64,000 nucleotides of DNA from an uncultured Eubacteriales bacterium (GTDB lineage: Bacteria > Acidobacteriota > Aminicenantia > Aminicenantales > Saccharicenantaceae): the NCBI GenBank assembly GCA_964585685.1, contig CAZPEP010000068.1, positions 91,686 through 155,685 on the forward strand, in the 5' to 3' direction. A program made the translations under genes and the position numbers. The first letter of the stretch is position 1, and each line of letters opens with the position of its first letter. The notes below the pieces were generated by a model. That model was given only the letters and a program-made list of their open reading frames with translations, had not been told where the DNA came from and did no database searches. Shown here piece after piece: positions 1,355-58,352 of this stretch.

Positions 1355-3673
1355 ATGAACACCACGCTCGAAAGAAAAGAGATCGACCTCCAGGAATATA
1401 TCCACATCGTCCTGAAGAGGAAGAACATCCTCATCGCCTTCACGGCGGTCCTCCTCGTCTTCGTGGGGATCTTCTCGTTCACCGCGACGCGCCTCTATCG
1501 GGCCACAGCGACGATCATGATCGACGAGCCCAGCTCGAACATGCTCAACATCCAAGACATCCTGAGCTCCGGGGCGTATTATCGGTCCGATTACCTGGGG
1601 ACCTACTTCAGCACCCAGCTCAAGCTCCTCACGAGTCGGTCCCTGGCCGAGCGGGTGGCCAGGAAGATGAACTTCCCGACCCGACCTGAGTTCCAGGCAG
1701 CGGCGCGCCCCCGTCCGAACCCCCTCAAGGGCGTCAAGGACCTCGTCACCCTGCGCTGGCTCTTCGACTCGAAGAAGTCCGCCGCTCGTGGCGAACAGCC
1801 CCAGTACAAGCCGAGCCCCTATTCGGCCTATGCCTTCACGGTCCTCGGAGGGCTGAGCGTATCTCCCGTGGAGGAGACCCGGCTCGTCGACATCAGCTAC
1901 ACATCCACGCACCCGGTCCTTGCTGCGGACGTTGTGAATGCCCTGGTCGAGGAGTTCATCACCTACTCGATCGAGACGCGGTACGAGGCCACACAACAGG
2001 CCTCGGAGTTCTTGAGCCAGGAGATCGCCAAACTCCGCGACGACCTCGGCGCGAAGGAACGGGACCTCCAGAGGTACGGCGAGGAGAAGAAACTCCTCTT
2101 CCTCAATAAGGACGAGAGTTCGGTCGTCACCAAGTTCGCCGACGTGAGCTCGGCCCTGACGGAAGCCCAGGTTGACCGCATCAAGAAGGAATCCATGTTC
2201 CGGGAGTTGAAAGGTCTGAGCGTCGATACCCTGCCCCAGTTCATCGATAACTCCCTCATCCAGGGGCTCAAGACCTCCTACACCCAGACCAAGAACGCAT
2301 ACGACGAAAGGATTAAGGTCTTCAAGCCCGACTATCCCGAGATCATCAAGCTCAAGGCCCGGCTGGACAGCATGAAGTCCGAGCTCGAGAGCGAGATCCG
2401 CAAGGCCGTGGACGCCTCCGAGGCCGATTTCCGGGCTGCCCAGAAGAAAGAGGGCTCCCTCCAGAGCATGCTGGAGACGCAGAGGACCGAGGTGTCCAAG
2501 ACCGACAGCAACGCCATCCTGTACAACAGCCTGCGGATCGAGGTGGAGAACATGCGGAATCTCCTGAACTCCCTTACCGCAAAGCAGAACGAGACGCTCG
2601 TTTCGGCCCGGCTCGGGGGGCTCCGGACGAGCAATATCAAGATCATCGACAAGGCGCTCGTCCCCGGCGGTCCGTTCACGCCCGACACCCGGCGCAACCT
2701 CCTCATGGCCCTCCTCGTCGGCCTCATCGGGGGGCTCGGCCTCGTGTTCCTGGTCGAGTACCTGGACAACACGGTCAAGGGCCCCGAGGATGCCGAGAAG
2801 CTCACCGGCCTCCCGTCTCTTGGGATCATCCCGTTCCTCGAGCCCGGCGGCACGAAGAAGCGTGTCGATACTTACGGAGCCTATTCCTACGGGGCGGAGA
2901 ACGCCCCGGCTTCGGAGACCATGCCCGAGGCGAGCGACATCGAGCTCATCAACCACCTCTACCCGAAGTTCTCGATCTCCGAGGACTACCGGACGGTCCG
3001 GACGTCCATCCTGTTCTCCAACGCCGACCGCCAGCCGAAGACGATCTGTTTCACGAGCACGATGCCGCAGGAAGGGAAGACGGCCACGGTCGGGAACATG
3101 GCTGTCTCGTTCGCCCAGCTCGAAGGCAAGGTCCTGCTTGTCGACTGCGACCTGCGCAAGCCGCGGCTCCACAAGGTCTTCAAGGTGCGGAACCTTGTCG
3201 GCCTGAGCGGCTGCCTGACGGGCAAGGTGACGTTCGACGACGCCGTCCAGAAGACGGCCATCGAGAACATCTGGATCCTTCCCAGCGGCCCGCATCCCCC
3301 AAATCCGGCCGAGCTTCTCAACTCCCGGCGGATGAAGGACCTCCTCGCCCTTGTCAAGGACCGGTTCGATTTCGTCCTCCTGGACACGCCCCCGGTCCTG
3401 GCCGTCATCGACCCGGTCATCATCAGCTCGCTCGCCGACTGCACGGTCGTCGTCATCCGGGCCGGAAAGACGACGCGCAAGCCGCTCATCCGGGCGGTCG
3501 AGGAGCTTCGCAAGACCAAGTCCGATATCGTCGGCGTCGTCTTCAACGAGGTCAAGCTCGGTCGCCAGGGGGCCTCAGTGCCGTATTACCATTATTATCA
3601 GTACGAGTATTCCACGAACCCGGAAGACCGGAAGAAGCTTCCGGACGGGAAGGACGCGCGCACCCGGGGATGA
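1355..3673 (+). CDS. Wzc-like polysaccharide co-polymerase / BY tyrosine kinase (PCP-2a)
   Basis: N-terminal Wzz domain with two TM segments. Walker A QEGKTATVGNMAVSFAQ, Walker A-prime VLLVDCDLRKP, Walker B FDFVLLDTPP. C-terminal Tyr cluster YYHYYQYEY. Confidence 0.9.
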   Translation: MNTTLERKEIDLQEYIHIVLKRKNILIAFTAVLLVFVGIFSFTATRLYRATATIMIDEPSSNMLNIQDILSSGAYYRSDYLGTYFSTQLKLLTSRSLAERVARKMNFPTRPEFQAAARPRPNPLKGVKDLVTLRWLFDSKKSAARGEQPQYKPSPYSAYAFTVLGGLSVSPVEETRLVDISYTSTHPVLAADVVNALVEEFITYSIETRYEATQQASEFLSQEIAKLRDDLGAKERDLQRYGEEKKLLFLNKDESSVVTKFADVSSALTEAQVDRIKKESMFRELKGLSVDTLPQFIDNSLIQGLKTSYTQTKNAYDERIKVFKPDYPEIIKLKARLDSMKSELESEIRKAVDASEADFRAAQKKEGSLQSMLETQRTEVSKTDSNAILYNSLRIEVENMRNLLNSLTAKQNETLVSARLGGLRTSNIKIIDKALVPGGPFTPDTRRNLLMALLVGLIGGLGLVFLVEYLDNTVKGPEDAEKLTGLPSLGIIPFLEPGGTKKRVDTYGAYSYGAENAPASETMPEASDIELINHLYPKFSISEDYRTVRTSILFSNADRQPKTICFTSTMPQEGKTATVGNMAVSFAQLEGKVLLVDCDLRKPRLHKVFKVRNLVGLSGCLTGKVTFDDAVQKTAIENIWILPSGPHPPNPAELLNSRRMKDLLALVKDRFDFVLLDTPPVLAVIDPVIISSLADCTVVVIRAGKTTRKPLIRAVEELRKTKSDIVGVVFNEVKLGRQGASVPYYHYYQYEYSTNPEDRKKLPDGKDARTRG

Positions 3674-4476
3674 TCGACCTTCACTGTCATATCCTGCCGG
3701 GCCTGGACGATGGGGCCAGGGACCTGGCCCATGCCGTTGCGATGGCCCGGATCGCCCGCGACGACGGCATCACGCATATCGCGGGGACGCCGCACCTGTA
3801 CAAGGGGAGCTTCGAGTTCCCCGACCTCGGCGTGTTCGACGAGGCCCGTGACCGGCTTGCCGGAGCGCTTCGGGACGAGGGCATCGCCGTTACGATCCTG
3901 CCCGGGGCGGAGGTTCACATCACTCACGGCCTCCTCGGCGAGGTCCGGGCCCGCAGGAAGAGCCTGTCCCTCGCGGGAAGCGCCTACATCATCGTGGAAT
4001 TCCCCCACGATCACGTCTTCTCCGGGGCGAAGGACCTGTTCTTTAACCTCATGAGCGAGGGTGTCATCCCGATCATCGCCCATCCCGAGAGGAACACGAT
4101 GTTCGCCCGATCGCCCAAGCTCCTCTTCGAGCTGGTTGCCATGGGCGCCCTGGCCCAGGTGAACGCCGGGAGTCTGATGGATGCCCACGGCCTTGAGGCG
4201 CGCGAGGCGTCCCGCAAATTCCTGGAGCTGGTCCTTGCGCACTTCATCGGGAGCGACGGCCACAACACCCATTCCAAGGCTCCGAGGCTCGCGGCCGCCA
4301 CGGAGATCGCCGCCGCGGTCATCGGTGAGGCCGGCGCCTCGGCCCTCGTTACGGGTAATCCCCTGGCCGTCATCGAGGATCGGGAGATCCCGTACCGTCC
4401 CGACCCTGTCGATCCCGTGGGGAAGGACAGGAAGCTCAAGTTGAGGATCCCCGGTTTCCTGAGGCCGGGAAAATGA
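3670..4476 (+). CDS. PHP-domain protein-tyrosine phosphatase (CpsB/YwqE type)
   Basis: N-terminus MIDLHCHILPGLDDGA..HIAGTPH is a PHP metal-binding motif. The start overlaps the wzc stop by 4 nt (ATGA). Confidence 0.85.
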   Translation: MIDLHCHILPGLDDGARDLAHAVAMARIARDDGITHIAGTPHLYKGSFEFPDLGVFDEARDRLAGALRDEGIAVTILPGAEVHITHGLLGEVRARRKSLSLAGSAYIIVEFPHDHVFSGAKDLFFNLMSEGVIPIIAHPERNTMFARSPKLLFELVAMGALAQVNAGSLMDAHGLEAREASRKFLELVLAHFIGSDGHNTHSKAPRLAAATEIAAAVIGEAGASALVTGNPLAVIEDREIPYRPDPVDPVGKDRKLKLRIPGFLRPGK

Positions 4477-4498
4477 ACGTACCGGAGCACAGAGAACC

Positions 4499-5962
4499 AT
4501 GAAGATCAAGATCGCCCGTAAAGGATCGGCGTCCCGGCCCGCGGCCCCTCCCGGAACAGGCACGGGAGGAACGGCCAGGATCGTCCAGTACGGCCTCCTG
4601 GCCCTGATCGTCCTCAGTCCGCTCCCCATGGCATCGGTCAATGAATGGTCGATCCTGGTCATCGAGCTCACCGTGCTCGCGATGACCGGGATCTTTATCC
4701 TGGCGAGCGACAAGCCCGCGATCAACCTCCATCTCAAAGCAAGGCTGAAGTGGCCCCGCTACGCTTTCTTTGCTCTTTTTGCCTTCATTGTCTTCCAGGT
4801 CGTACCGCTCCCCGCGTTCCTCGTCCGTATCCTGTCGCCTGGCACCTACGATTTTTATAAGGCCTTTTCGCCGGGCTTTACGGGCAAGGGTTTCCTGAGC
4901 CTCTCAGTCGTCCCGGTCCGGACGTTCCATGAAGGCCTCGAGCTCGCGGCCTATGTCCTCGCTGGGTTTCTCGTCGTCAGGACGGTCACCCGCGGGCGCG
5001 AGATCCGGAGGGTCATCGCCTTCCTCGTCGCGGTGGGCGCGTTCGAGGCGTTCTACGGGCTTTACGAGTTGACCACGGCGAATCCGCACCTCCTCTTCTA
5101 TAAAAAGGTCTATAGCCTGGGCTCCGTGACCGGGACCTTCGTCAACCGGAGCCATCTGGCCGGCTACCTGGAGATGATCATCCCTCTAGCCATCGGGCTC
5201 CTCATCGCCCGGCTGGATTTTTTCTCCCTAGGAGGGGAGGGGCTCAAGGCGAAACTCCTTCATATGACGGGCAAGGGGCTGGTCCCGAACCTCCTCCTCT
5301 TTGCCGCCGTGATCGTCATGTCGCTGGGAGTCCTCTTCTCCCAGTCCCGGGCCGGGATCTTCATCCTGGTATTCACGTTCATCCTGTTCGTCGGGTTCAT
5401 CGTTCTGCATTTCGGCCGCTTCGGGCCCAGGCGGATGTGGCTCAGGAACTTCATCTGGATCACGTTCCTCTTCATTGCGGTCTCCGCCCTCTATATCGGC
5501 GTCGGGTCCACCATCCAGCGCTTCGCCCTCGACGACCTGCTCCGGGAGAGCCGGCCTCTCTTCTGGAGCAACGTGGGCCGCATCATCGCCGCCTTCCCCG
5601 TCTTCGGGAGTGGCCTGGGCGCGTTCGCATCGGTCTATCCGGCCTTCGAGAAGGCCGCCGGGCCGGAATTGCTCCTCACCCACGCTCACAACGATTATCT
5701 CGAATACCTTTCGGAGCTCGGGGCGGTCGGTTTCGTCCTTCTCTTCGGGGCCGTCCTCTTCATCGGTATTTCGTCCTTCCTCGTCTGGCGCGAAAGGAGG
5801 AACCCGGACGTCAAAGGGATCGCCCTCGGCGGGATCATCTCGCTCATCGTCATCCTGGTCCATAGCCTGACGGACTTCAACCTCCACATCCCGGCGAACA
5901 TGCTCCTCTTCGCGATTGTCCTTGCCTTGACCTTCGTCACGGCGTTCTACAGAAAGACATAA
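4499..5962 (+). CDS. Wzy_C / O-antigen ligase family membrane protein (candidate EPS polymerase)
   Basis: Polytopic membrane protein with the Wzy_C signature THAHNDYLEYLSELGAVGF in a periplasmic loop. It follows wza-wzc-wzb. Confidence 0.75.
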   Translation: MKIKIARKGSASRPAAPPGTGTGGTARIVQYGLLALIVLSPLPMASVNEWSILVIELTVLAMTGIFILASDKPAINLHLKARLKWPRYAFFALFAFIVFQVVPLPAFLVRILSPGTYDFYKAFSPGFTGKGFLSLSVVPVRTFHEGLELAAYVLAGFLVVRTVTRGREIRRVIAFLVAVGAFEAFYGLYELTTANPHLLFYKKVYSLGSVTGTFVNRSHLAGYLEMIIPLAIGLLIARLDFFSLGGEGLKAKLLHMTGKGLVPNLLLFAAVIVMSLGVLFSQSRAGIFILVFTFILFVGFIVLHFGRFGPRRMWLRNFIWITFLFIAVSALYIGVGSTIQRFALDDLLRESRPLFWSNVGRIIAAFPVFGSGLGAFASVYPAFEKAAGPELLLTHAHNDYLEYLSELGAVGFVLLFGAVLFIGISSFLVWRERRNPDVKGIALGGIISLIVILVHSLTDFNLHIPANMLLFAIVLALTFVTAFYRKT

Positions 5963-5971
5963 GGTCGTGCC

Positions 5972-7654
5972 ATGAAAAAAGCGCTTTTTCTGGTCGCACT
6001 CGGGCTTCTCGGGCTTGCGGCCGTCTGTTCTTACGCGAACATCCACCTCTATTACAAGGCAAAGGTCGCGACCGACGATCCCGTGGCACGGATTCGCCTG
6101 CTCGAGCGGGCCAACGGCTTCTTCCCCTGGAACGACCTCGTCCATTTCGAGCTCGGCAAGGCCTACTTCGAACGGGGCGTCGAAGACATCGGGAACGTCG
6201 GCCGCCGCGACGCCGATCTCCGGAGGAGCTTCGTGAGCTTCGAACGGTCCCTCCGCCTCGATCCCGGAGCCCTACAGACGCATTTCCAGTTCGCTCAAGC
6301 CCTTCTCTATATGACCTATCTCTCCCTTCCCGGGCCCATCAGCTATTTCGAGGAATTCAAGAAGGCCGCGCTCCTGACCGGACACAATAGCCAGATCTTC
6401 TTCGAGGTCGGCAAGGTCCTGCTATCCCGCTGGCCAAGCCTGTCCCCGGCGGAGCGTGTCTTCACGCGCGACATCCTGAAAAGGATGCTGGCCGGGAGGG
6501 ACAGGGAAAGGCTGGCCGCCGTCCTCCAGGTATGGGACCTGAACGCGCGGGATTACGCGCTCATGGACGCGATCCTGCCCGAGGATCCGGTTACGCTGCG
6601 CCTCTTTGCCCGGTTCCTCGGAGAGAAGACTCTTTCCGTCGAGGCCAGACAGAAGGCCCTCTCCCGGGCCGAGGGTCTTGAGTACGTGACGGCCGCCGGG
6701 GAGTCGGAGTCCGGACAGAGGGCGCTGGATTCGTTCCGGACGGTCGAGGCAGCCACGCATTTTTTGGCCTGCCTGGGCATCCTCAAGAACATCAAGTTCT
6801 ATCAGGCCCTCGCGGGCGAGATCCTGATCGACCCGAAGGAGCATGCCGACATGCGCCGGTCGGCGTATCTCAACCTTGCCAAGTGCCGGATCGAGGAGAC
6901 GCGGAGCCTCGAGAGCGCCGAACCCGACCTCGAAGCCTATCTGTCTCTGGAGGACCGCCCGTCGGCCGTCGGGGACCTCGAGACCTTCCTCAAGGAAAGG
7001 AACGTCCTCCCCGCGGAGCCGGCCCTGAACGCCAAGGACCTCAAGGCTCTCGCCTTCCAGCTTAGGCTAAGCTTCCGGCAGAACCGGTACCGGGATATCA
7101 CGCGATTCGGCGCGTCTCTCGAACAAGGACTCGTCTTCGTCCCCGAGGCCATGAAGCCCGATCTCCTCGAGACGTACGAGATCATCGGCGACGCATTCCA
7201 GAAACTCGATTACCTCTACGAAGCCGAGCGGTTCTACGAAAAGGCACTGGACGGCAGGTCCGGGAGCCTCGCCCTCCTGCTCAAGATCCGGAAGGGCTAT
7301 GAGCGCTTGAACGACGATGCCGGGCTACGGAAGGCCGATGAAGCCATTCGGTCGGCCTTAACCCCCGGGGAACAGGCTCTCGACGGTGCTCCCGTGCCGA
7401 AAGGGATGGAACGGGCCTTTCCGCTGGTCCTCGAAGCCGGCAAGCTCGCCCTGGACTTCGCGTTCGCGGCCTCCGGGGAAGGCCCCGGCCCCCTCGTGAG
7501 CCTGGAGTTCAACGGGCGGGTGGTCTGGGAAGGCCTGATCGGGCCCTCCGGGTGCAGGGTGGAGGCGGAAGCCACCACCGGAACTAACGGCCTCGTTCTC
7601 GGAGCCGTCAGCGGCCCTGTCGTCCCCCTCCGGCTGACCTGGCGGCCTCTCTGA
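5972..7654 (+). CDS. TPR-like repeat protein with N-terminal signal/anchor
   Basis: Signal peptide MKKALFLVALGLLGLAAVC. TPR-like helical repeats (GKAYFERG, FQFAQALLYM etc.). Function unknown. Confidence 0.5.
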   Translation: MKKALFLVALGLLGLAAVCSYANIHLYYKAKVATDDPVARIRLLERANGFFPWNDLVHFELGKAYFERGVEDIGNVGRRDADLRRSFVSFERSLRLDPGALQTHFQFAQALLYMTYLSLPGPISYFEEFKKAALLTGHNSQIFFEVGKVLLSRWPSLSPAERVFTRDILKRMLAGRDRERLAAVLQVWDLNARDYALMDAILPEDPVTLRLFARFLGEKTLSVEARQKALSRAEGLEYVTAAGESESGQRALDSFRTVEAATHFLACLGILKNIKFYQALAGEILIDPKEHADMRRSAYLNLAKCRIEETRSLESAEPDLEAYLSLEDRPSAVGDLETFLKERNVLPAEPALNAKDLKALAFQLRLSFRQNRYRDITRFGASLEQGLVFVPEAMKPDLLETYEIIGDAFQKLDYLYEAERFYEKALDGRSGSLALLLKIRKGYERLNDDAGLRKADEAIRSALTPGEQALDGAPVPKGMERAFPLVLEAGKLALDFAFAASGEGPGPLVSLEFNGRVVWEGLIGPSGCRVEAEATTGTNGLVLGAVSGPVVPLRLTWRPL

Positions 7655-15607: not shown

Positions 15608-16819
15608 ATGTCCGAATCCGGGGAAATCGAAAAAGAGTCCAATCTCGTCATCCAGGAGATCGAAAACCAGCTGGAGAGGCTTCTCGCCAGGAAAAAGGAC
15701 GAGATCGATAGCGCTCTGGCCGCGAGGATTCGGGAGGAGGAGGAAGCTGCCAGAGCCCGGATGGACGGCGTGGAGAAGGAGATCGACCGGGGACGGGAAT
15801 CCCTCCGGGAATTCCAGACCATGGTCTCCGAATCAGAAGGGGAGAGGCAGGCGGTCCTGGAGGAGATCCGGGCGGGCTTTTCCCAGGCCCTCGACTTCCA
15901 GTCCCAGATCGAAGGCCTCGTCAAGCGGACCGTTGAGGAGATCGGGAGAGTCGGTGACCTCCAGCGGAAACTGGAATCCTTAAGGCGGCGGACCTCGGAG
16001 GGCGCGGCCTTCCTGAAGAGGGACCTGAACGAGAGGTTCGGGATCGTGGCTGAAGCCCGCGGGGAAAAGGAGCGCTGGCCGGAACCCACCCCAGACCTCG
16101 ACGCAGAGCTGGAAAAGCTGAAGAGGATCCGGACACTCCTTGCCGGCGGGACGGAAGGTTTCCCCGGGTTGGAGAATTCTCCCGGATCGGAACCGGAGGA
16201 CGTCTGGCGGGCCCGGATCCCCGATATCCAGGAGCTCATTCAGGCGACTAAACCGGTCGAGGACGGCCGTCCGGTTGAGACTCCGCCCGGCCAGGGCGCC
16301 GGGGACGCGAGTTCCGTTTTGGACCGTCTGCGGAGGATCGAGCCCGTCGCGGGAAGCGGGAAGATCAGCTATTTTCAGAAAGGGGACAGGACCGTCTTGG
16401 ACGCCGGGATGCTTCTCGATGCCGTGGACAGGGCTGTGGACGTGGCCCGGAAGCTGGCCGGAAAGCTCGAAGAAACGGAATCGCCCCGGGAACGCTTCTT
16501 CATCAAACAGGATCTCATCAACGGCCAGGAGGGCCTCCGTATCCTCATCCTACGGGCCGCGACGCTGTGCGAGAAGGAGTCCATGACGCTTCCCCCGGAG
16601 ACCCTGGACGTCCTTGACGCCGCCGGGCTGAGGAGCCTGTTTGACCGGCTGAGCGTTGGGAACTGGGCGAACGCGGCGGACCTCACCGCATTCGCCGGAG
16701 AAGCGAAGGCGCTCCGGGCGGCCTTTCTGGAACGGGCGGTCCCCTCCGACCGGTATGTGCTGTCGATTCTCGAAAAGCTCGGCGGCGTGCCGTCAGTTGA
16801 GCGACCCGGCCTTCTGTAG
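15608..16819 (+). CDS. hypothetical coiled-coil protein
   Basis: RBS aaggag plus ATG at 15608. The N-terminal 150 aa are rich in heptad-like E/R/L repeats. No known domain. Confidence 0.55.
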   Translation: MSESGEIEKESNLVIQEIENQLERLLARKKDEIDSALAARIREEEEAARARMDGVEKEIDRGRESLREFQTMVSESEGERQAVLEEIRAGFSQALDFQSQIEGLVKRTVEEIGRVGDLQRKLESLRRRTSEGAAFLKRDLNERFGIVAEARGEKERWPEPTPDLDAELEKLKRIRTLLAGGTEGFPGLENSPGSEPEDVWRARIPDIQELIQATKPVEDGRPVETPPGQGAGDASSVLDRLRRIEPVAGSGKISYFQKGDRTVLDAGMLLDAVDRAVDVARKLAGKLEETESPRERFFIKQDLINGQEGLRILILRAATLCEKESMTLPPETLDVLDAAGLRSLFDRLSVGNWANAADLTAFAGEAKALRAAFLERAVPSDRYVLSILEKLGGVPSVERPGLL

Positions 16820-18814
16820 GGACTCGAAGTATTCCTCGAGCGCCTTCCGGTCGGTGGGCGACAGGTCCTTGAACTGCAGCCCGGAATAAAAATAAGGGGA
16901 TTCCCCCCCGGCTTTGTCCGAATAGACCACGTCGCTCGCGACGCGGTTCGCTTTGTTCCCCAGCACGAGGATCAGGCCGATCGACTTGGCGACGGGAAGC
17001 CGGGCCTCGGACAGGATCTTCGCCCCTCCGAGGCTCAGGTTGATCGTCTTCGCCACCTTGAACCCGCCGTTCTCCTGGATCATCACAAGGGTGGCCGCGT
17101 GGTATCTCTCGGACTTCCTCTTTTCCCGGTAAGACGTCTCCTTATAGGTCCGGATTATCCCGCCCTGCCGTTCCTCCGCCTGTTCTCGTGAGTAACAACA
17201 GACCTTGTTCTTCGCGAGGACCCGTTCGTCCGTCCCTCCGGCTCCCGGCTCGAAGAATCTCTTCCCCTTGGCCTCGGCCATGGCCATGTCCGCCTCGCCG
17301 GCCAGGATCCTCAGGTCAGGCTTGTCGACGTCCGGGGCCTGTCCGGGCGCCGGCGGCGGGAACATCGTTACGCCGAAGGACATGGTCAGGTTGTTCCCGG
17401 GTTGGAACTCCTGAAACTCGAAATAGTGCTCCTCGACGTTCTTCCGGATGCGGTCGGTGAGCAGGCAGGCGTCCTCGGGGCTCTTGACGCCAGTCAGAAA
17501 GAAGAGGAACTCCTCCCCGCCGTAGCGGCAGACGAGGTCCTCCTCGCGGATCGAGTCCTTCATGACGCCGGCCAGCTCGCGCAGGAGCTTGTTCCCCGCC
17601 TCATGACCGTTGCGGTCGTTGTAGTACTTGAACCAGTCCACGTCCCCCATGACCAAAGCCGAGGAGCCCTCCTCGCGCCGGCGTTTGCCCTGGGAATTGA
17701 TCTTCTGGACGACCTTCTCGAAGAAGGGGTCGGGCCGGAGCAGGCCGGTCAAGGCGTCGTACTGGATGAGGTTCAATTTCGTCATCGCGATGGCGATGTG
17801 CTCGGACAGCCCCCGGAGAATCTCCTGATCCTCCCGAGAGAAGCCGGACCGGGCGGACTTTCCGCCGGAGGTCTTGTTGTAGACCTCGACGACGCCGATG
17901 ACCTCCGTGTCGTGGCGGATGGGGACGGCCAACAGGCTCTTCAGCGGCGTCCGGAGGTGCTCGATGTACCTCCGCGAGAGGCGCTGGTCGAAGGAGAGTT
18001 CGGTGATGTTAACCTCCCGTCCGTTGAGGGCGACGGACGCGGCGAAGTCCTGGGCGTCGAGGCGGGCGACGTATCTCAGGAATTCGGGATGTGTCAGGAA
18101 GGTGTCGTCCCAAACCAGCGGCTTGAGGTACCGGCCGAGCGTCTCGTTCTCGTCCAGGATGTAGATCGTGGCCCCGGAGGCCTGGACGATGTCCTTGAAG
18201 TCCGTAGTGATGTCGAGAAGGCTCGAGACGTCGTTGGCCGCGTAGATCTTGCGGAGGACCTTTTCGATCCTCTGCCGCTCCTTCTGGAACCAGACGTACT
18301 TTGCCTCGATCGCCACCCGTTTCTCGAGCTCCTTGATGAAGTTCTCGTTGATGAGGCTCTTGATCTCCCGGATTTCGGCATAGACGTCACGGACCTTGGC
18401 CCCCTGGATGTCGAGGGCGCTCCTTAGGGAGCCGACTTCTGTCCTCATCGCGGCGTGGGTGAGTGCTCGTTCGACGGACCTGGTGAACTGGGCGTCGTCC
18501 TGGAGAGGGAAGGATAGGGCGAACGTGTCGACGTACCTGTCGGAAGGCCAGTCCCGGGCCAGGGACCGGAGCCTTTCATCGTCCCGGCCGGTGATGATGA
18601 CGGCCGTCGCCTTGCCGAACAGGCTTAGGGCGGAGGACTGCGCCGCGGCCGAGGCGTCGAGGACGGCGAGCAAGGTGTTTGCCGTTTCCGGCAGGGCCGC
18701 GGCCGACTCGAGGGAGGACGCGGCGACGACCGTCCCGTAACGCCGGCAGAGCTTCGACAGGAGGTCGGCCTCTATAGGATTCGGATTCAGAATGAGGATT
18801 GGTCTCTGGTTCAT
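16793..18814 (-). CDS. multidomain c-di-GMP protein: REC-like, GAF, GGDEF diguanylate cyclase and C-terminal PilZ
   Basis: GGDEF active site RYGGEEF. GAF-like core (EVIGVVEVYNK). The C-terminal PilZ carries RKSER (RxxxR) and NLSLGG (D/NxSxGG). Confidence 0.8.
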   Translation of the reverse strand: MNQRPILILNPNPIEADLLSKLCRRYGTVVAASSLESAAALPETANTLLAVLDASAAAQSSALSLFGKATAVIITGRDDERLRSLARDWPSDRYVDTFALSFPLQDDAQFTRSVERALTHAAMRTEVGSLRSALDIQGAKVRDVYAEIREIKSLINENFIKELEKRVAIEAKYVWFQKERQRIEKVLRKIYAANDVSSLLDITTDFKDIVQASGATIYILDENETLGRYLKPLVWDDTFLTHPEFLRYVARLDAQDFAASVALNGREVNITELSFDQRLSRRYIEHLRTPLKSLLAVPIRHDTEVIGVVEVYNKTSGGKSARSGFSREDQEILRGLSEHIAIAMTKLNLIQYDALTGLLRPDPFFEKVVQKINSQGKRRREEGSSALVMGDVDWFKYYNDRNGHEAGNKLLRELAGVMKDSIREEDLVCRYGGEEFLFFLTGVKSPEDACLLTDRIRKNVEEHYFEFQEFQPGNNLTMSFGVTMFPPPAPGQAPDVDKPDLRILAGEADMAMAEAKGKRFFEPGAGGTDERVLAKNKVCCYSREQAEERQGGIIRTYKETSYREKRKSERYHAATLVMIQENGGFKVAKTINLSLGGAKILSEARLPVAKSIGLILVLGNKANRVASDVVYSDKAGGESPYFYSGLQFKDLSPTDRKALEEYFESLQKAGSLN

Positions 18815-19015: not shown

Positions 19016-20683
19016 ATGATCGAGAGAACGGGAGCTCCATCGAAGCCTATCCGGGCCTACCGCGGGAACGTCCTGCACACGAAGGGCTGGTCCCAGGAGG
19101 GCGCGCTCCGGATGCTGATGAATAACCTCGATCCCGAGGTGGCGGAGAAGCCCCGGGACCTCATCGTATATGGGGGCACGGGCAGGGCCGCGCGCAATTG
19201 GGAATGCTACCGGGCGATCGTCGAAACCCTCAAGAGCCTCAGGAACGACGAGACGCTCATCGTTCAGTCGGGCAAGCCTGTGGCCGTGTTCCCGACTCAT
19301 GACCAGGCTCCCCGGGTCCTCATCGCCAACTCCCTGATCGTCCCCAAGTGGGCGACTTGGGACGAGTTCCGGAGGCTCGAAACCTTGGGACTGACGATGT
19401 ACGGGCAGATGACCGCCGGGAGCTGGATTTATATTGGGACCCAGGGCATCCTCCAGGGGACCTATGAGACCCTGGCCGCCGCGGCCCGCCGGCATTTCGG
19501 AGGGACGCTCAAGGGCAGGCTCGTCCTCTCGGCCGGGCTCGGGGGGATGGGCGGGGCACAACCGCTGGCCGTTACTATGAACGAGGGCGTGGCCGTTGTC
19601 GTCGAGGCCGACCCGGAGCGGATCCGGCGCCGCCTTGACACGCGGTATGTCGACGTCATGACCGAAAGCCTCGACGAGGCGCTGAGGCTCGCCGACGCGG
19701 CCATTAAAAAGGGAGAGCCCCTCTCCGTCGCCCTCCTCGGCAACGCCGCCGACGTCGTCCCCGAGTTCGTCCGGAGGGGGATCGTCCCCGATGTGCTGAC
19801 CGACCAAACCTCCGCCCACGACGAGCTTAACGGGTACGTCCCGAACGGCATCCCGTACGCCGAAGCCCTGAGGCTCCGCCGGGACGATCCGAAGGACTAC
19901 ATCCGGTGCTCCTACGAAGCGATGGCCGCCCACGTCCGGGCGATGCTCGAGCTCCGGAGGCTGGGGGCCCGGACGTTCGATTACGGGAACAACATCCGGG
20001 GCCAGGCCCTTAAGGCCGGCGTCGCCGACGCCTTCGACATTCCGGGCTTCGTCCCCGAATACATCCGCCCGCTCTTTTGCGTGGGCAAGGGCCCGTTCCG
20101 CTGGGCTGCCCTTTCCGGACGGGCGCGGGACATCCACGTCACGGACGAGGCCGTCCTCAAACTGTTCCCGGAGGACGAGGCTCTCGCGCGGTGGATCCGA
20201 AAAGCCCGGAAACACGTACGGTTCCAGGGATTGCCCTCGCGGATCTGCTGGCTCGGTTACGGCGAAAGGGCGGAGTTCGGCGACGTCATCAACCGCATGG
20301 TCCGAAAGGGCGAGATCAGCGCTCCGGTCGTCATCGGGCGCGACCACCTGGACACGGGCTCGGTGGCCTCGCCGAACCGCGAGACCGAGGGGATGAAGGA
20401 CGGTTCCGACGCCATCGCCGACTGGCCGGTCCTCAACGCCCTGCTTAACGCGGTGAACGGAGCCTCTTGGGTTTCCGTCCACCACGGCGGAGGCGTGGGC
20501 ATCGGTCTGTCCCTGCACGCCGGGATGGTCGTCGTCGCCGATGGCACGCCGGCCATGGGGAAGCGCCTGGAGAGGGTCCTCACCGGCGATCCCGGGATGG
20601 GGGTCGTCCGGCACGCCGACGCGGGCTACGACGAAGCGGTCCGGTTCGCCCGGGAGAATAAGATCAAGATCCCGATGATGTGA
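19016..20683 (+). CDS. hutU: urocanate hydratase
   Basis: [56 protein letters not shown] is the canonical urocanase N-terminus. 555 aa. Confidence 0.92.
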
Positions 20684-20781
20684 CGGATTTCCGTCCGCGG
20701 CCCCCGGCTCACGTCTTGTGACCTCCTCCGCACGCCTAAACGACTGTCTTTGAACGGCTCAGAGCTCGTGTCTCATCTTGA

Positions 20782-20811
20782 GCGCCCGTCGCCCGCTCTG
20801 CGGTCGGGCGC
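20782..20811 (+). promoter_or_regulatory. inverted repeat, candidate enhancer (UAS) about 100 bp upstream of the sigma54 promoter
   Basis: GCGCCCG..CGGGCGC arms (20782-88 and 20805-11). An AT-rich tract at 20833-20855 lies between this repeat and the -24/-12 element. Confidence 0.35.
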
Positions 20812-20882
20812 CGCTACCCCCGGTTCGCGCAGAATCTTATTATTATCAAGGGGATAGTTGGAGACCGTTTCCGGCGGCGTCC

Positions 20883-20898
20883 AGGCACGGAACTTGCA
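20883..20898 (+). promoter_or_regulatory. sigma54 (-24/-12) promoter
   Basis: AGGCACGGAACTTGCA against consensus TGGCACG-N4-TTGCA, 15 of 16 matches. The GG-N10-GC spacing is exact. It lies 27 nt upstream of ATG 20925. Confidence 0.7.
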
Positions 20899-20924
20899 TT
20901 GGAACCTGTCGAAAGGAGGTTCCG

Positions 20925-21143
20925 ATGAAAAAAGCCGTTGCCCTCGCGCTTGCAGGGCTGGTCATGTTCTCCGCGGTCTGGTTCTTTCCCCGGTTGGCAG
21001 AGGCCCGTGACACCGCCGAATGCTTCAGGAACCACTCCACGTGCCGCAACAACGCTTTCGGCATGGACGTGGGCTGGGTCAGGATGACGCTCGTGCTGAC
21101 GGTCTGCGACGCTGGCCTGGGAAGGTGCCTCCTGCTGGCTTGA
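20925..21143 (+). CDS. small secreted Cys-rich peptide (72 aa precursor with signal peptide; mature about 43 aa with 4 Cys)
   Basis: RBS aaggagg at 20913-20919. The sequence is MKKAVALALAGLVMFSAVWFFPRLAEA | RDTAECFRNHSTCRNNAFGMDVGWVRMTLVLTVCDAGLGRCLLLA. It is immediately followed by a hairpin terminator. Confidence 0.6.
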   Translation: MKKAVALALAGLVMFSAVWFFPRLAEARDTAECFRNHSTCRNNAFGMDVGWVRMTLVLTVCDAGLGRCLLLA

Positions 21144-21151
21144 AAAAGGAA

Positions 21152-21189
21152 AGGGGCCCCTGAGAAAAAAGGGGCCCCTTTCACGTTTC
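21152..21189 (+). terminator. rho-independent terminator
   Basis: AGGGGCCCCT-gagaaaaa-AGGGGCCCCT followed by TTTCACGTTTCTCTTT. Confidence 0.7.
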
Positions 21190-21214
21190 TCTTTATAGCA
21201 CGTGGAGGTTCCCG

Positions 21215-22210
21215 ATGAAGATGGCAATTACTCGTCCGGCCGCGGCCGCGCTGGCCGCCGTAATCGTCGCGGCGGCCTTTCCTTCCGGCGGGAAGGGGGA
21301 CCTCCGGCGCCTCTCGGTCCGGGACGTCAAGGCTGATTTCCGAACGGATGCCGAGGCCGCGTTCGGCCGGCCCGTCTCCATTTCTCACGACGCCGACGCC
21401 GTCTACGTCGTCGACGCGGAGGCCCACGAGGTCAGGGTTTTTTCCAGGGCAGGCGTCTTTCTCAAGGCGCTGGGGAGGAAAGGGCAGGGCCCCGGAGAGT
21501 TTGATACACCCGCCGATCTGGACGCGCGGGAAGGCCGTCTTTATGTTGCCGACAAGTTCAATGACAGGATCCAGGTCCTGGACGGGGCCGGGAAATACCT
21601 CGGCGGCTTCAAGGTCCCGTTCAGTCCGGACCAGGTCTGCGCCTTGAACGGGGGAAAGGTCGTCGTATCCCATCTTCCTTTGGGACTCAGGGGGGCCGAG
21701 CCTATGCTCCATTGTTACTCGGCGGAAGGGAGGCTCCTCTGGGAGGGGATGGCGTGCCATGTGTCGGGGGACAGGACCTACGATGCGTTCCGCAACCTCC
21801 TCGTCATGGTCCGCGGAGGGAGGGACGATCTCTACGTCATCCGGAAGAGCGACGAGAACGCGATTCACCGTTTCGACGGATCGGGAAGGCCGCTCGGCCC
21901 GATCGTGGTCCCCGACGCCTATGCCTTTAAAACGATCACCCTCCCGCTTCCTGGCCCGAACCGGGTCCTCAAGGCCTTTTGCTGGGACGCCGCCTTCGAC
22001 GGGGACCGGATCGGTCTCCTCGCCCCGGACTACACCGACGAGGGGGACATTGGCCCCGGGAGGCGCATCTATATCGTCGGTCTTGACGGGAGCCTTGGCG
22101 GGCTGGTTGAGCTCCCCGTAATCGTCAGGAGGATAGATCTGGACGGCGACACGATCCACGCCATCGACGACGACTACAATCTGAGGATCTTCAAGATGGA
22201 GCTTCGATGA
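21215..22210 (+). CDS. secreted NHL-repeat (six-bladed beta-propeller) protein
   Basis: RBS ggagg. Signal peptide present. Repeated hydrophobic-YVVD/YVAD-x-N-RIQV motifs (YVVDAEAHEVRVF, LYVADKFNDRIQVLD). Confidence 0.8.
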   Translation: MKMAITRPAAAALAAVIVAAAFPSGGKGDLRRLSVRDVKADFRTDAEAAFGRPVSISHDADAVYVVDAEAHEVRVFSRAGVFLKALGRKGQGPGEFDTPADLDAREGRLYVADKFNDRIQVLDGAGKYLGGFKVPFSPDQVCALNGGKVVVSHLPLGLRGAEPMLHCYSAEGRLLWEGMACHVSGDRTYDAFRNLLVMVRGGRDDLYVIRKSDENAIHRFDGSGRPLGPIVVPDAYAFKTITLPLPGPNRVLKAFCWDAAFDGDRIGLLAPDYTDEGDIGPGRRIYIVGLDGSLGGLVELPVIVRRIDLDGDTIHAIDDDYNLRIFKMELR

Positions 22211-22695
22211 GGCGCGGCGGGGCTCTCGCGGGCTGGGCGGTGGTCTTCGCTTTTTCCTGTCTCGGGGCAGGGGGCGGCGACCGACGGTTCGTCCTGCATT
22301 CCCTGGACGAAGCCCTCCCGGCCAACGGTAGGCCGGCCCTGCTGGTATTCTTTTCGACGGGCTGCACCCCGTGTTTTGACGACCTCCTGGAGATGGCCCT
22401 GTTTGTCCGCCGGAACGGGCTCGACCTGGCGGTCGTGGGGGTCAGCGGTGATACCGAGGCCGAAATTGATAAGTTCGTCGAAAAACATTCCTTGACCTGG
22501 CCGGTTGTCCGCGACGAACGGGGGCGGATCCGCCGCAGGTTTAAGGTGGACCTCCTTCCCTATAAGATCGTCCTGGTCGGAGGGACCGAGGTCTACAGGG
22601 ACGATTATTACCTGGTCCTGGATGAGCGGCTGAGGAGGGTCCAACGATGCCTGATAGAGCTCGCGGCCGGCTCGCGGTCCGGCTCACCGTCCTGA
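22207..22695 (+). CDS. TlpA-like thiol:disulfide oxidoreductase (thioredoxin fold)
   Basis: CxxC motif LLVFFSTGCTPCFDDL, a redoxin-type fold. Start overlaps the NHL stop by 4 nt. Confidence 0.75.
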   Translation: MRRGGALAGWAVVFAFSCLGAGGGDRRFVLHSLDEALPANGRPALLVFFSTGCTPCFDDLLEMALFVRRNGLDLAVVGVSGDTEAEIDKFVEKHSLTWPVVRDERGRIRRRFKVDLLPYKIVLVGGTEVYRDDYYLVLDERLRRVQRCLIELAAGSRSGSPS

Positions 22696-23384
22696 AACTC
22701 CGGCGTTCGCCGGCGACCGTCGTGTCGGCGCTGTTGCTGCCGGCGCTCGTCGTCCTTGTCTGGGCTCGTGAGTCTCACGGGACCGCCCTGAGGATCTTCC
22801 TCTATCTCCTTCCCCACGTTTTCCTCGTCACGACGCAGAATATGTTCAAGGGCGAAGCCGCCGGGGGCGCGCTCGAGAACGTCCTCTTCGTCCGCGACGG
22901 CTTTAGACGGCATGTCCTCTGGAAGACCGCGGCCCTCGTTCTGTCGAGCGTCGCCTGCGCCCTCCTCGTCTTCGCGACCATTCAAGTCGGAGGTCTCGGA
23001 ACTCACCGGCCCGGCTGCGTGGACCTTCGGGGCTTAGCGGTTTCCCTTTGTGCCGGTGTCTATTATATCGGGCTCGGCGGCTTACTGGGGCACTTCCTCG
23101 AGGGAGGGTCGAATGTCCTGGCCCTCATCGTCGCCCAGGCGGCGGCGTTCGTCGGCTTGATCGTCGACGCCTCGGCCGGGCACCGATTTCTTGAATCCCT
23201 GGCGACGGGCACGTTCTCCGGCCCGGGGGAGCAACTGAGATTCATCGTTCTTGCGGGAGTTCTCCCCAATATCCTCGTCGCCGTTCCCTTGCGCCGCTAC
23301 GCGCCCTGGATTGTGCCGGCTGCCGGGGCCCTGTTTCTTATTCAGGTCCTGATCGTTCGGAGGTCGGAGCTGAGGGGACGATGA
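22647..23384 (+). CDS. polytopic membrane protein, probable ABC-2-type permease partner
   Basis: About six hydrophobic segments. It overlaps upstream and downstream genes, which indicates translational coupling. The true start is uncertain. Confidence 0.5.
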   Translation: MPDRARGRLAVRLTVLKLRRSPATVVSALLLPALVVLVWARESHGTALRIFLYLLPHVFLVTTQNMFKGEAAGGALENVLFVRDGFRRHVLWKTAALVLSSVACALLVFATIQVGGLGTHRPGCVDLRGLAVSLCAGVYYIGLGGLLGHFLEGGSNVLALIVAQAAAFVGLIVDASAGHRFLESLATGTFSGPGEQLRFIVLAGVLPNILVAVPLRRYAPWIVPAAGALFLIQVLIVRRSELRGR

Positions 23385-24085
23385 GCCGGACCGTTCTGGC
23401 CGTCCTGGGTCTCGCCCGGCGGTTCGGCGCCGTCCGGGCCGTCCGCGATATCGGGTTCTCCCTTGATGGGGGACGGGTCGCGGCGCTCCTCGGCGAGAAC
23501 GGCGCGGGCAAGTCCACGACCATCAGGATCGCCTTGGGCTTCCTGCGCAAAGACGAAGGGGAGGTCCTCATCGACGCCGGGACCGTCGGCTATGTCTCGG
23601 AACAGCCGTCGTTCTTCCCTTGGGCTTGCGGCGACGAACTCCTGGACTGCGCGGCCCTCCTCAACGGGATCCCGCGGGACCGGGCGCGCCGGAGCGCCCT
23701 CGAATGGTGCGAACGCCTGCCGTTCCCTCCCGAGCTCCTCCGGCGCAGGGTCTCGACATATTCCCAGGGGAACCGGAAGAAATTCGCCTACCTGCAGAGC
23801 CTCATCCTCTCGCCGGACCTCTTCGTCGCGGACGAACCCTTTTCGGCCCTCGACCCGGTCTCCATCCGGAACGTGCGCGGCATCTTCCGGGAACTCGCTT
23901 CCGGGGGGAGCGCCGTCCTGCTGAGCTCCCATCTTATTGCGGAGGTCGGGAAGGTCTATGACGACATCATCGTCCTCCATCAAGGAGCGGTGGTCCTCCG
24001 GGAGCGGCGGGAGAATCTAGGCCCCGGCGTCGACCTCGAAGCCCTCTTCCTGAAAGCGATCAAATCACCGTGCCGTCGGGGATGA
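23381..24085 (+). CDS. ABC transporter ATP-binding protein
   Basis: Walker A GENGAGKST. Signature YSQGNRKK (LSGGQ variant). Walker B LFVADEP. H-loop SSH. Confidence 0.85.
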   Translation: MSRTVLAVLGLARRFGAVRAVRDIGFSLDGGRVAALLGENGAGKSTTIRIALGFLRKDEGEVLIDAGTVGYVSEQPSFFPWACGDELLDCAALLNGIPRDRARRSALEWCERLPFPPELLRRRVSTYSQGNRKKFAYLQSLILSPDLFVADEPFSALDPVSIRNVRGIFRELASGGSAVLLSSHLIAEVGKVYDDIIVLHQGAVVLRERRENLGPGVDLEALFLKAIKSPCRRG

Positions 24086-39571: not shown

Positions 39572-40460
39572 CGCTTTCCCCCTCTGTTATAACGATTAAT
39601 CAGCGACTTACGATGAGCCCTGACCCCTCATCGTCTTTCAGTCCGAAACCCTAATTTTGCCGGCGTTTTCAGTCTGTTTTGGCACGCCACCGGCACACGG
39701 CCGGCACTCTGCGAACGAGTAAGAAGTTTCCCCTGCTCCAGTCGTCTATTTAAATGAAATGCTATTGAATGACCCAGTCAGTATATGAGGTGGTAAACGT
39801 CCCGAACTTTTTCAATTCCTCAAGGATGGGCTTAAGTTTTTCATTTGCGGAGTTCCCTAATTCGCTATAACTCCGGTCGGCATTATAGTACCTTTCCCAG
39901 TCCTTTTCTGATTTGATGACAATGACCAACCCAACACCGTTTTTGATATCACCTCTGATGCTCTTTACAAAATATGCCTTCCAGCCGATCCTGTTCTTTT
40001 CGAATTCTGGAATATATTTATTAGTAAAGAACGCAATGAATTGCTCCATAGTCACCCCGGGTTCAAGAGCTATGGTCGCTACGTGAACGCCTATTACGTT
40101 CCCCTTTTGTAAAGTTTGTCCAAAAGGGATGCCCGCTAATAAGATAATGGCTGCCGTAATAAGAAAAACATACCTCATTGAATTTTTCATAACCCTCCTC
40201 CTTGTTGAAGCATTGTAGGGCCTATAGGGCCTCATTTATGCATACTAAGGCGTATTATTTGGGAGAGGATACTCATACCCTGCCTTTTGTCTGGACCGCC
40301 ACCGCTGATTCCAGCCTCGAAAAGAGTATAAGACTTTGTCAACATATTTGCGAGACGGAACACTAGCTTGATCTCGTTATTGAAAATCAGAGCTTAGGAG
40401 AAATCAATTCCTGTCCGAATTTCGCGGACGTCAAACAGCGTCTTCCTCATCGGAGTGGCC
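39572..40460. other. low-GC islet immediately 3-prime of tRNA-Arg (candidate horizontally acquired remnant)
   Basis: A visibly AT-richer composition (roughly 40-45% GC) starts at the tRNA 3-prime end and ends near 40460. It carries one orphan gene with a different RBS style (AAGGAGGAGGG). Confidence 0.55.
39762..40190 (-). CDS. hypothetical exported protein (orphan, low-GC)
   Basis: Strong RBS aaggaggagggtt and ATG (complement 40190). Signal peptide MKNSMRYVFLITAAIILLAGIP. No known domain. Confidence 0.6.
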   Translation of the reverse strand: MKNSMRYVFLITAAIILLAGIPFGQTLQKGNVIGVHVATIALEPGVTMEQFIAFFTNKYIPEFEKNRIGWKAYFVKSIRGDIKNGVGLVIVIKSEKDWERYYNADRSYSELGNSANEKLKPILEELKKFGTFTTSYTDWVIQ

Positions 40461-55392: not shown

Positions 55393-55405
55393 GGCGCCTT
55401 CCCTC

Positions 55406-58044: not shown

Positions 58045-58352
58045 TCTGAGCCTCCCATTACGAGGAGCGGAGGCGGGATTTCGGCATCCCGATTTCTCGC
58101 TTACACCCCTCCTCTGTCGCAGGGTGAGGGCGTCCATAATCCGGCTATTATTGCAGGTTGCCGGGAATTATTCAACGTGGCGGAGAAACCCTGTCCCAAA
58201 GTTTGAAGTCCCTCCCCCTTTCCGTTTGACCAAGGACGTCTTCTCCCTCAAGGCGGAGCGCGTAATGGACTAGTACAGGAGAGTATCGTTCTACAACCTG
58301 GAGTTTAAGCGGGAGCCGTCTGAGCGGCCGGCCCCGCATCGCGCGGGTGAGG

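Follow-up and report, generated by a model that had tools for sequence, protein, structure and literature searches.

The open reading frame (ORF) considered here encodes 72 amino acids on the + strand of a 64,000-nucleotide stretch of DNA from an uncultured bacterium of the Aminicenantes (contig CAZPEP010000068.1 of assembly GCA_964585685.1, positions 91,686 to 155,685; the whole stretch is referred to as the window). It runs from an ATG at 20925 to a stop codon at 21141-21143 and is placed in a 531-nt gap, with hutU upstream and a four-gene cluster downstream. A first-pass annotation had described a 72-aa product with a Sec signal peptide that is transcribed from a sigma-54 promoter. Both the ORF and the promoter were recovered in the comparative analysis, and the signal-peptide pattern is kept across the family. 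The features of the gap, together with the gene preceding it, are listed below; features for which no strand applies are marked as unstranded.

19016-20683, + strand: hutU (urocanate hydratase; TIGR01228, 938 bits)
20707..20723, unstranded: candidate enhancer (upstream activating sequence, UAS) site 1, the palindrome GCTCACGTCTTGTGACC, consensus GTCACA-N3-TGTGAC
20768..20785, unstranded: candidate enhancer site 2, GTGTCTCATCTTGAGCGC, a less well matching version of the site 1 palindrome, located about 62 bp further downstream
20782..20811, unstranded: GC inverted repeat GCGCCCG ... CGGGCGC, arms at 20782-20788 and 20805-20811
20833..20857, unstranded: AT-rich tract with the conserved core TTATCAAGGGGATAG (20843-20857), a bend site resembling those of integration host factor (IHF)
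20883..20898, + strand: sigma-54 -24/-12 element AGGCACGgaacTTGCA, GG-N10-GC spacing
20912..20919, + strand: ribosome-binding site (RBS) AAAGGAGG, 5 nt ahead of the ATG
20925..21005, + strand: predicted signal peptide, residues 1-27, MKKAVALALAGLVMFSAVWFFPRLAEA, with n, h and c regions and a small-x-small motif
21006..21143, + strand: mature 45-aa mini-protein and stop codon, with two C-x6-C motifs (C33 and C40; C61 and C68)
21149..21182, + strand: GC-rich hairpin after the stop codon, 13-bp stem, folding free energy -34.6 kcal/mol, z -3.3

The element at 20883-20898 fits 11 of the 12 specified positions of TGGCACG-N4-TTGCW and is the sole match with at most one mismatch in the window. Such a match is expected by chance 0.28 times per window and at least one was present in 20 of 100 shuffles; as chance matches are that frequent, uniqueness within the window is weak evidence for the site. 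The element was therefore judged by its conservation at 16 distinct loci (numbered with the prefix L), which include orthologues of 25-45% peptide identity found via their propeller neighbours. At 15 of these 16 loci a GG-N10-GC element matching 9-12 of the 12 positions ends 25-26 nt before the ATG, and the lone locus without a sigma-54 element is that of L026b, which comes second in a tandem pair of peptide genes. The fixed distance is kept also in orthologues of only 25-40% peptide identity, where the flanking DNA is otherwise unalignable. Because the element is conserved at a fixed distance while its flanks cannot be aligned, the sigma-54 assignment is considered well supported, and sequence comparison by itself could hardly give a better footprint of such a promoter.

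In an intergenic alignment of eight close relatives (alignment A5), the stretch from the promoter to the ATG is near-invariant. Transcription would start near 20909, giving a leader of about 16 nt, and GAAAGGAGG is conserved before the start codon in all loci. A stem that might occlude the RBS, formed by GGAACC (20902-20907) and GGTTCC (20918-20923), was considered and discarded: distant loci lack it, and the expected transcript would begin only after its 5' arm.

The conserved blocks of A5 extend over 20708-20735, 20768-20788, 20843-20857 and from 20881 to the ATG. UAS site 1, about 194 nt upstream of the predicted transcription start and about 216 nt before the ATG, falls in one of these blocks and holds the only TCAC-N5-GTGA match of the window. 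In 13 of the 16 loci a palindrome that agrees with the consensus at 9 or more of its 12 positions is present 213 to 227 nt before the ATG, compared with a shuffled expectation of <0.11 per locus; it is missing in L020, L023 and L027. Site 2 corresponds to a block, GCGTCTCATTTCGAGCGC, that is nearly invariant in the eight close relatives, and clear second copies of the palindrome were found at -152 to -158 from the ATG in L011, L017, L026 and L028. The centre-to-centre spacing of the two copies is about 62-64 bp. These palindromes are putative enhancer-binding sites, at which an activator protein would be expected to bind.

The first-pass annotation had proposed the order UAS, IHF site and sigma-54 promoter, with the GC inverted repeat as the UAS. 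The order is upheld by the conserved blocks, whereas the choice of the UAS is not: the part of A5 that holds the GC inverted repeat, between its second and third conserved blocks, is the most variable and is rich in indels, and the repeat was rejected as a UAS for its lack of sequence conservation. By the measure of conservation, the GTCACA-N3-TGTGAC palindrome appears to be the better enhancer candidate. GC-rich inverted repeats of differing sequence, with no T-tract after them, are present at this place in other loci, L007, L009, L013 and L014 among them, and may be either a structure kept by covariation or plain GC-rich DNA. The IHF-like bend site lies about 59 nt upstream of the predicted transcription start. 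Its core is kept among the close relatives, and L017 has in its place TATCAACGAGTTA, an exact match to the IHF consensus WATCAANNNNTTR, which suggests that IHF may bind to the AT-rich tract. A search of all six frames of the 64-kb window identified no GAFTGA-type motif of an enhancer-binding protein, in agreement with the earlier statement that no such regulator is encoded there.

Twelve of 13 close homologues of the peptide are exactly 72 aa long, and the remaining one (P0013, 57 aa) is a frameshifted fragment. At L006 and L010, which are contigs of metagenome-assembled genomes (MAGs) from long-read assemblies, genes are frameshifted or cut short, the peptide gene among them (P0013 is the 57-aa case; the gene of L010 reads through); these defects look like assembly indels in homopolymer runs and not like pseudogenes. 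Pattern scans of genomes and metagenomes with the close-family alignment yielded close relatives only, and distant members were reached via propeller neighbours and by an exhaustive profile search. In the latter, a hidden Markov model built from the alignment of close homologues was run against 1.84 billion representative proteins and yielded 33 clusters at E <= 1e-3, of which 27 are 68-76 aa long; the clusters outside this range are fragments or longer calls (87-249 aa). The homologues are thus nearly all 68-76 aa long, and not the longer proteins that would have made the ORF a truncated N-terminus, an outcome that the first-pass annotation had anticipated as counting against it.

In an alignment of the family (A3; 30 rows, 24 of them of 68-76 aa), the only invariant columns are the four cysteines, C33, C40, C61 and C68, and an L-T-x-C-D motif is nearly invariant. 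Pairwise ratios of non-synonymous to synonymous substitution rates (dN/dS) among seven close orthologues are mostly 0.2-0.5. Length, invariant cysteines and substitution pattern indicate a genuine peptide gene under purifying selection. The locus is syntenic from the hutU side to the glgC/PFK side and is kept across the whole class. Two antisense ORFs, 20814-21227 and 20846-22159 (the latter of 437 aa), were rejected as GC-driven shadows, as the selection signal is in the + frame.

Comparison of the peptide with Pfam and NCBIfam, both as a single sequence and with 30 members at E <= 10, returned noise only; a sequence-profile search of the PDB returned nothing, and Foldseek found no match with E < 1 between the AlphaFold2 model of the peptide and the PDB. 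A match to the PhrA family of quorum-sensing peptides (NF040904; 20.2 bits, E 5e-4) is under the curated 40-bit cut-off, and about half of the matched residues 2-50 belong to the signal peptide; identity with PhrA was therefore rejected. No papers were found in a full-text literature search on DUF5128, NVEALA, or Aminicenantes with sigma-54. Those members that are named in their source records are all labelled 'hypothetical protein' and come from MAGs of Candidatus Aminicenantes or Saccharicenans. As the first-pass annotation had also concluded, the peptide family appears to be undescribed; it matches nothing curated and seems to be confined to uncultured Aminicenantes. Each of its parts is of a known kind, whether the sigma-54 promoter, the Sec signal, the hairpin with its predicted disulfide staples or the pairing of thioredoxin (Trx) and NHL proteins.

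The N-terminus consists of MKK, an 18-residue hydrophobic core and the sequence PRLAEA|RD. By inspection, the n, h and c regions and the small-x-small cleavage motif are kept in 30 family members, and signal peptidase I is predicted to cut after AEA (A27|R28). The mature peptide has 45 residues, a mass of 4988 Da in the reduced form and a pI of 7.9. These values replace the lengths and masses given previously (about 43 aa and about 4.7 kDa), since the sequence that was quoted for the mature peptide counts 45 residues; the four cysteines ascribed to it are all there.

The AlphaFold2 model, computed from the 30-sequence alignment, comprises three helices: residues 2-20, which are the signal peptide and stand separate, and residues 30-45 and 51-71, which build a helical hairpin with predicted local distance difference test (pLDDT) values of 88-94. 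Each helix of the hairpin carries one C-x6-C motif, the first on the polar amphipathic helix 1 and the second on the hydrophobic helix 2. The hydrophobic character of helix 2 (mean Kyte-Doolittle hydropathy 1.36) implies its burial against a partner, in an oligomer or in a membrane. By sequence arithmetic (33+68 = 40+61) the two motifs are in antiparallel register, so that on an antiparallel helix-loop-helix two interhelical disulfides, C33-C68 and C40-C61, would be possible. A twin C-x6-C hairpin stapled by these two disulfides is the predicted structure of the mature peptide.

The window carries a resistance-nodulation-division (RND) efflux operon that encodes an AcrB-like protein (1040 aa), a membrane fusion protein and an outer-membrane factor. 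This efflux system indicates that the host is diderm, and in a diderm host a Sec signal leads to delivery into the periplasm and not to the outside of the cell. The mature peptide is therefore most likely periplasmic.

The hairpin that follows the stop codon bears on how the peptide gene relates to the genes downstream. Its T-tract is interrupted (TTTCACGTTTCTCTTT; tail UUUCACGUUUCUCUUU), and several orthologues (L017, L023) have better U-tracts. In all cassette loci a hairpin is found after the last peptide gene, with the propeller gene next, and in L016, L017, L018, L023, L026 and L028 the position is kept with a different sequence. A sigma-70-like promoter was looked for in the 32 nt that separate the hairpin from the propeller gene, and none was seen. 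Two tandem, divergent peptide genes precede the propeller gene in L023 (5284-5750) and L026 (5686-6219); those of L023 are 17 nt apart, while the pair of L026 is split by a hairpin and only its first gene has a sigma-54 site.

The hairpin is probably leaky, because no promoter follows it and because the second peptide gene of L026 is located behind a hairpin with no sigma-54 site of its own; the ATGA overlap, which suggests translational coupling of the propeller and redoxin genes, points in the same direction. The hairpin would be either a leaky intrinsic terminator or an mRNA-stabilising element. From the lack of a promoter in the gap, the adjacency of hairpin and propeller gene, and the arrangement in L026, it follows that the peptide gene is most likely the first cistron of the propeller operon. 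The strong terminator that was previously thought to isolate the gene is thus present as a strong hairpin after the stop codon, whereas the missing promoter and the apparent read-through in L026 argue against the isolation itself. An Rfam search of 20500-21400 gave sub-threshold hairpin noise only.

The four genes of the downstream cluster are as follows.

21215..22210, + strand: exported six-bladed NHL/DUF5128 beta-propeller, 331 aa (Pfam PF17170, PF01436)
22207..22695, + strand: TlpA/ResA-like extracytoplasmic thiol-disulfide oxidoreductase (redoxin) with a CTPC active site; its start codon shares the sequence ATGA with the stop codon of the propeller gene
22647..23384, + strand: hydrophobic 245-aa membrane protein, presumed permease of ATP-binding cassette type 2 (ABC-2), paired with the ATPase wherever present
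23381..24085, + strand: ABC transporter ATPase of the DrrA/ABC-2 type (PF00005)

Seven distinct propeller loci were examined (the clade of the window, L016, L017, L018/19, L023-25, L026 and L028). Each of them has one or two peptide genes immediately upstream of the propeller gene and a TlpA-like gene after it. The peptide gene is therefore strictly linked to the propeller and redoxin genes. The ABC pair is usual, and it is missing in L017 and L023, where the peptide, propeller and redoxin genes remain. Orphan peptide genes that are not accompanied by the cassette were found at L020 (479-709) and L027 (6001-6222), one beside a tRNA gene and a PAP2-like gene and the other among genes for rubrerythrin, NadA and Fe-S assembly; both orphans have a sigma-54 element and an RBS at the usual spacing.

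The AlphaFold2 model of the propeller is of high quality (pLDDT 88; predicted template modelling score 0.85). The nearest folds are eukaryotic NHL domains, Vgb lyase, PAL and the Bacteroides protein BF0058, with template modelling (TM) scores of about 0.5-0.6 and 11-14% identity, and the sequence profile also matches the NHL domains of NHLRC2 and SOQ1. Bacteroidales DUF5128 propellers are often encoded beside small 'NVEALA' proteins and TlpA-like genes. In the redoxin, the CxxC motif and a proline at the place expected for the cis-proline of the thioredoxin fold, as judged by position, are invariant in nine orthologues. A database protein from outside the window, P0036 (488 aa), has the propeller and the TlpA-like redoxin fused in one frame and could be a genuine fusion or the result of a sequencing frameshift at the ATGA overlap. 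The 245-aa membrane protein has no match in Pfam or NCBIfam, and the best NCBIfam matches of the ATPase (DrrA, lantibiotic-protection and PQQ-system ATPases) are all far below their cut-offs.

Among the neighbouring genes, hutU is solitary, with no adjoining hutH or hutI, and the peptide locus follows it directly in nearly all of the loci that were inspected (L001, L005, L016, L017, L026, L028). UAS site 1 starts 24 nt past the hutU stop codon, and the association of hutU with the peptide gene may reflect synteny or a functional link. Further upstream, a 673-aa protein with GAF, GGDEF and C-terminal PilZ domains (16793-18814, - strand) is a diguanylate cyclase with its own receptor domain for cyclic di-GMP, and it is syntenic with the peptide locus across the clade. 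The window also contains a polysaccharide cluster encoding a Wzz/tyrosine-kinase-like protein (772 aa) and a Wzy_C O-antigen-ligase-like protein; the RND efflux operon and this cluster together occupy 52270-58137 (- strand) and 1355-7654 (+ strand). Two ORFs, 39762-40235 (- strand) and 44920-45387 (+ strand), have a third-position GC content of 0.49 and 0.57, respectively, compared with 0.7-0.9 in the rest of the window, and may be foreign or non-coding.

These observations can be combined into a model of the locus. The peptide gene would be the first and most strongly expressed cistron of an Aminicenantes-specific, sigma-54-dependent operon. An enhancer-binding protein encoded in trans would bind to the two GTCACA-N3-TGTGAC palindromes, about 194 and about 132 nt upstream of the transcription start, and an IHF-like bend at about -59 would bring it to the sigma-54 RNA polymerase at 20883-20898. 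The transcript would have a leader of about 16 nt with a perfect Shine-Dalgarno sequence, and the stable but leaky hairpin would keep the peptide mRNA far above the mRNA of the four downstream genes. The 72-aa precursor would be exported by Sec and cut after AEA, releasing a 45-aa protein of about 5 kDa into the periplasm, where it would fold as an antiparallel helix-loop-helix stapled by C33-C68 and C40-C61. The NHL propeller would serve as a binding platform for the mini-protein and the redoxin would set the thiol/disulfide state of its four cysteines, with the ABC-2 transporter in an accessory part. The physiological role is probably an inducible envelope or redox function.

That the periplasmic twin-Cx6C mini-protein is a client or small partner of the propeller/redoxin pair is the interpretation we favour, and we give it an even chance of being correct. 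It draws on the gene linkage, the ATGA overlap, the fused form P0036, the invariant CxxC and proline of the redoxin, and the precedent of SOQ1 and NHLRC2. Several points weigh against it. The linkage was found in one vertically inherited clade, for which plain synteny would also predict it, and the existence of orphans indicates that the peptide can apparently be encoded away from its partners, although the cassette is possibly located elsewhere in the same genomes. The propeller has no conserved histidine or cysteine cluster of catalytic appearance, and its fold matches are generic. The disulfide pattern was read off the sequence register and not off the coordinates of the model. The hydrophobic helix 2 would also suit a membrane-active peptide, and the best sub-threshold matches of the ATPase include lantibiotic-protection transporters.

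A more far-reaching form of this interpretation regards the locus as a periplasmic redox module, in which the mini-protein would be an abundant mobile carrier of dithiol/disulfide, or else possibly of persulfide or metal, that is charged or discharged by the split Trx-NHL pair. We consider this form speculative and rather unlikely. If true, it would provide the first genetically defined client of the widespread thioredoxin-like plus NHL-propeller architecture (NHLRC2/SOQ1) in bacteria, and the eukaryotic twin-CXnC hairpin proteins would gain their first counterpart among bacteria.

Alternatively, the cysteines might serve as ligands. The product would then be a periplasmic Cys4 mini-protein that carries a metal, persulfide or cofactor, an inducible stress chaperone similar in logic to the sigma-54-dependent ZraP, or a small structural subunit that inserts into the propeller, and the TlpA-like protein would keep its thiols reduced; taken as a whole, we regard this alternative as doubtful. 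The combination of a propeller with an ABC-2 transporter recalls NosDFY-type maturation systems, and in the anoxic habitats of Aminicenantes periplasmic disulfides are not a given, both of which speak for it. The invariant residues are the four cysteines only, and the peptide gene is strictly linked to a gene for an exported propeller, often with that of an ABC-2 exporter alongside. Moreover, proteins of the TlpA family are typically specific periplasmic reductases that prepare cysteine ligands before metallation; the case of TlpA with ScoI and CoxB is cited in PMC6107167 (ref. 40). However, cysteines at i and i+7 on two antiparallel helices have the geometry of a disulfide staple, as in twin CXnC proteins, and not that of a common metal site, the 30-row alignment contains no conserved histidine, methionine or additional cysteine ligands, and Pfam and NCBIfam identified no metal-related gene at the locus.

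The first-pass annotation had seen in the gene the architecture of precursors of bacteriocins, pheromones or ribosomally synthesised and post-translationally modified peptides (RiPPs). In its unmodified form, this proposal describes a Sec-dependent, disulfide-stabilised antimicrobial or signalling peptide, similar to class II bacteriocins or pheromones, for which the ABC-2 transporter would provide immunity or export. The product is small and cationic (pI 7.9), and one helix of its predicted hairpin is very hydrophobic; the design of the gene would yield a high stoichiometry of peptide to enzyme, tandem and orphan paralogues exist, and the ATPase has a weak resemblance to ATPases of the lantibiotic-protection and DrrA types. 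Bacteriocins built as helical hairpins with disulfide staples have been described, gallocin A (bioRxiv 10.1101/2022.12.05.519244) being one. Nevertheless, the host is diderm and nothing at the locus would serve to cross the outer membrane, and neither a double-glycine leader nor a C39 peptidase exporter nor a small immunity gene was identified there by Pfam and NCBIfam. The ABC genes are absent in L017 and L023, in which peptide, propeller and redoxin are retained. Synteny, purifying selection and class-wide retention are also unlike the patchy occurrence of typical accessory bacteriocin loci. An antimicrobial or signalling peptide is consequently an improbable reading whose defining parts are missing; the hydrophobic helix, the paralogues and the ABC-2 genes leave it a low probability.

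Still less probable, to the point of being a marginal option, is a RiPP-like precursor on which two enzymes would act after export, the NHL propeller as a lyase or cyclase like PAL or Vgb and with it the redoxin, to modify the core outside the cytoplasm. The propeller fold is shared by two lyases that act on peptides, PAL and streptogramin B lyase, and at the locus a precursor gene, a hairpin and enzyme genes follow one another in this order. Against this, no known maturase family is represented (radical S-adenosylmethionine enzymes, LanB/C/M, YcaO etc.), the neighbours being a propeller, a redoxin, a permease and an ATPase; in place of a recognition leader the N-terminus has a conserved Sec-type signal; among the conserved columns of the propeller, the residues that PAL and Vgb use for metal binding and catalysis are not evident; and the fold similarity is that of NHL proteins in general. 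Finally, although high-GC DNA is rich in spurious ORFs such as the 437-aa antisense ORF, an untranslated ORF, with the sigma-54 promoter driving the propeller operon through a structured leader, is next to impossible to reconcile with a conserved perfect RBS, a length of 68-76 aa held down to about 25% identity, invariant cysteines, dN/dS below 1, and orphan copies that have no operon behind them.

Whichever function applies, the peptides constitute an unannotated, clade-wide family of small proteins in the Aminicenantes, an abundant uncultured lineage of anoxic sediments and bioreactors, and genes of this type, of about 70 aa, are routinely left as 'hypothetical'. The clean, phylogenetically footprinted sigma-54 region, with its candidate UAS palindromes, IHF-like site, -24/-12 element and predicted 16-nt leader, offers a handle on the regulon and on the activator that would control it. 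If the peptide is a client of the NHL propeller and the TlpA-like protein, the locus would be a tractable bacterial model for Trx-NHL proteins, whose function is debated in humans (NHLRC2; fibrosis, neurodegeneration and cerebral angiomatosis, or FINCA, disease) and in plants (SOQ1). If it is antimicrobial, it would represent a new disulfide-stapled hairpin scaffold.

In its regulation the locus resembles zraP and Geobacter pilA, sigma-54-dependent genes for small, abundant exported proteins that have an upstream UAS and an IHF site. The order of elements is comparable, with candidate enhancer sites and an IHF-like bend site here, then a -24/-12 element and a short gene for a small extracytoplasmic protein, and the activator would act in trans. 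The peptide differs in that it has no sequence relationship to ZraP or to pilins and does not carry a class III signal peptide. With the operons of lantibiotics and other bacteriocins, and with stapled hairpin bacteriocins such as gallocin A, the locus shares a short structural gene ahead of a stem-loop and of accessory and ABC genes, a cysteine-containing helical hairpin as the product and, in some genomes, several paralogous structural genes. It is distinguished from them by a Sec signal in a diderm host and by its character as a vertically inherited core locus that lacks maturase, double-glycine leader and C39 exporter.

The predicted structure of the mature peptide is reminiscent of the twin CXnC proteins (CHCH-domain proteins with twin CX9C or CX3C motifs, such as Cox17 and the small Tims) and of the plant alpha-hairpinins (CX3C...CX3C; vicilin-leader peptides, Jug r 2). 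In each case about 40-70 residues form two antiparallel helices with CXnC pairs in register, and the proteins need an oxidoreductase of their own, in a compartment that is oxidising or extracytoplasmic. Structures of the Jug r 2 leader were among the non-significant Foldseek matches to the peptide model. The spacing is CX6C here and CX3C or CX9C in the known proteins, there is no sequence homology and no Pfam match to CHCH or Tim10, and the peptide is bacterial, Sec-exported, under sigma-54 control and endowed with a strongly hydrophobic second helix; its disulfides are predicted.

In NHLRC2 and SOQ1 a TlpA-like thioredoxin domain and an NHL propeller are joined, an architecture that is found from bacteria to humans and whose function is unclear (PMC6107167), and SOQ1 was reported to work on a single specific client through its thioredoxin-like domain (bioRxiv 10.1101/2024.11.01.621559). 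In the cassette, too, a six-bladed NHL propeller is paired with a TlpA-like thioredoxin fold, outside the cytoplasm or in a lumen, through genes that overlap here and appear fused in P0036. It differs in consisting of two proteins with the propeller first, whereas the known module has the order Trx then NHL, in having CTPC/CxxC in place of CC(I/V)NC, and in lacking the C-terminal beta domain. The similarity is limited to generic NHL repeats, and the cassette is not an orthologue but a split, reversed analogue of the NHLRC2/SOQ1 module.

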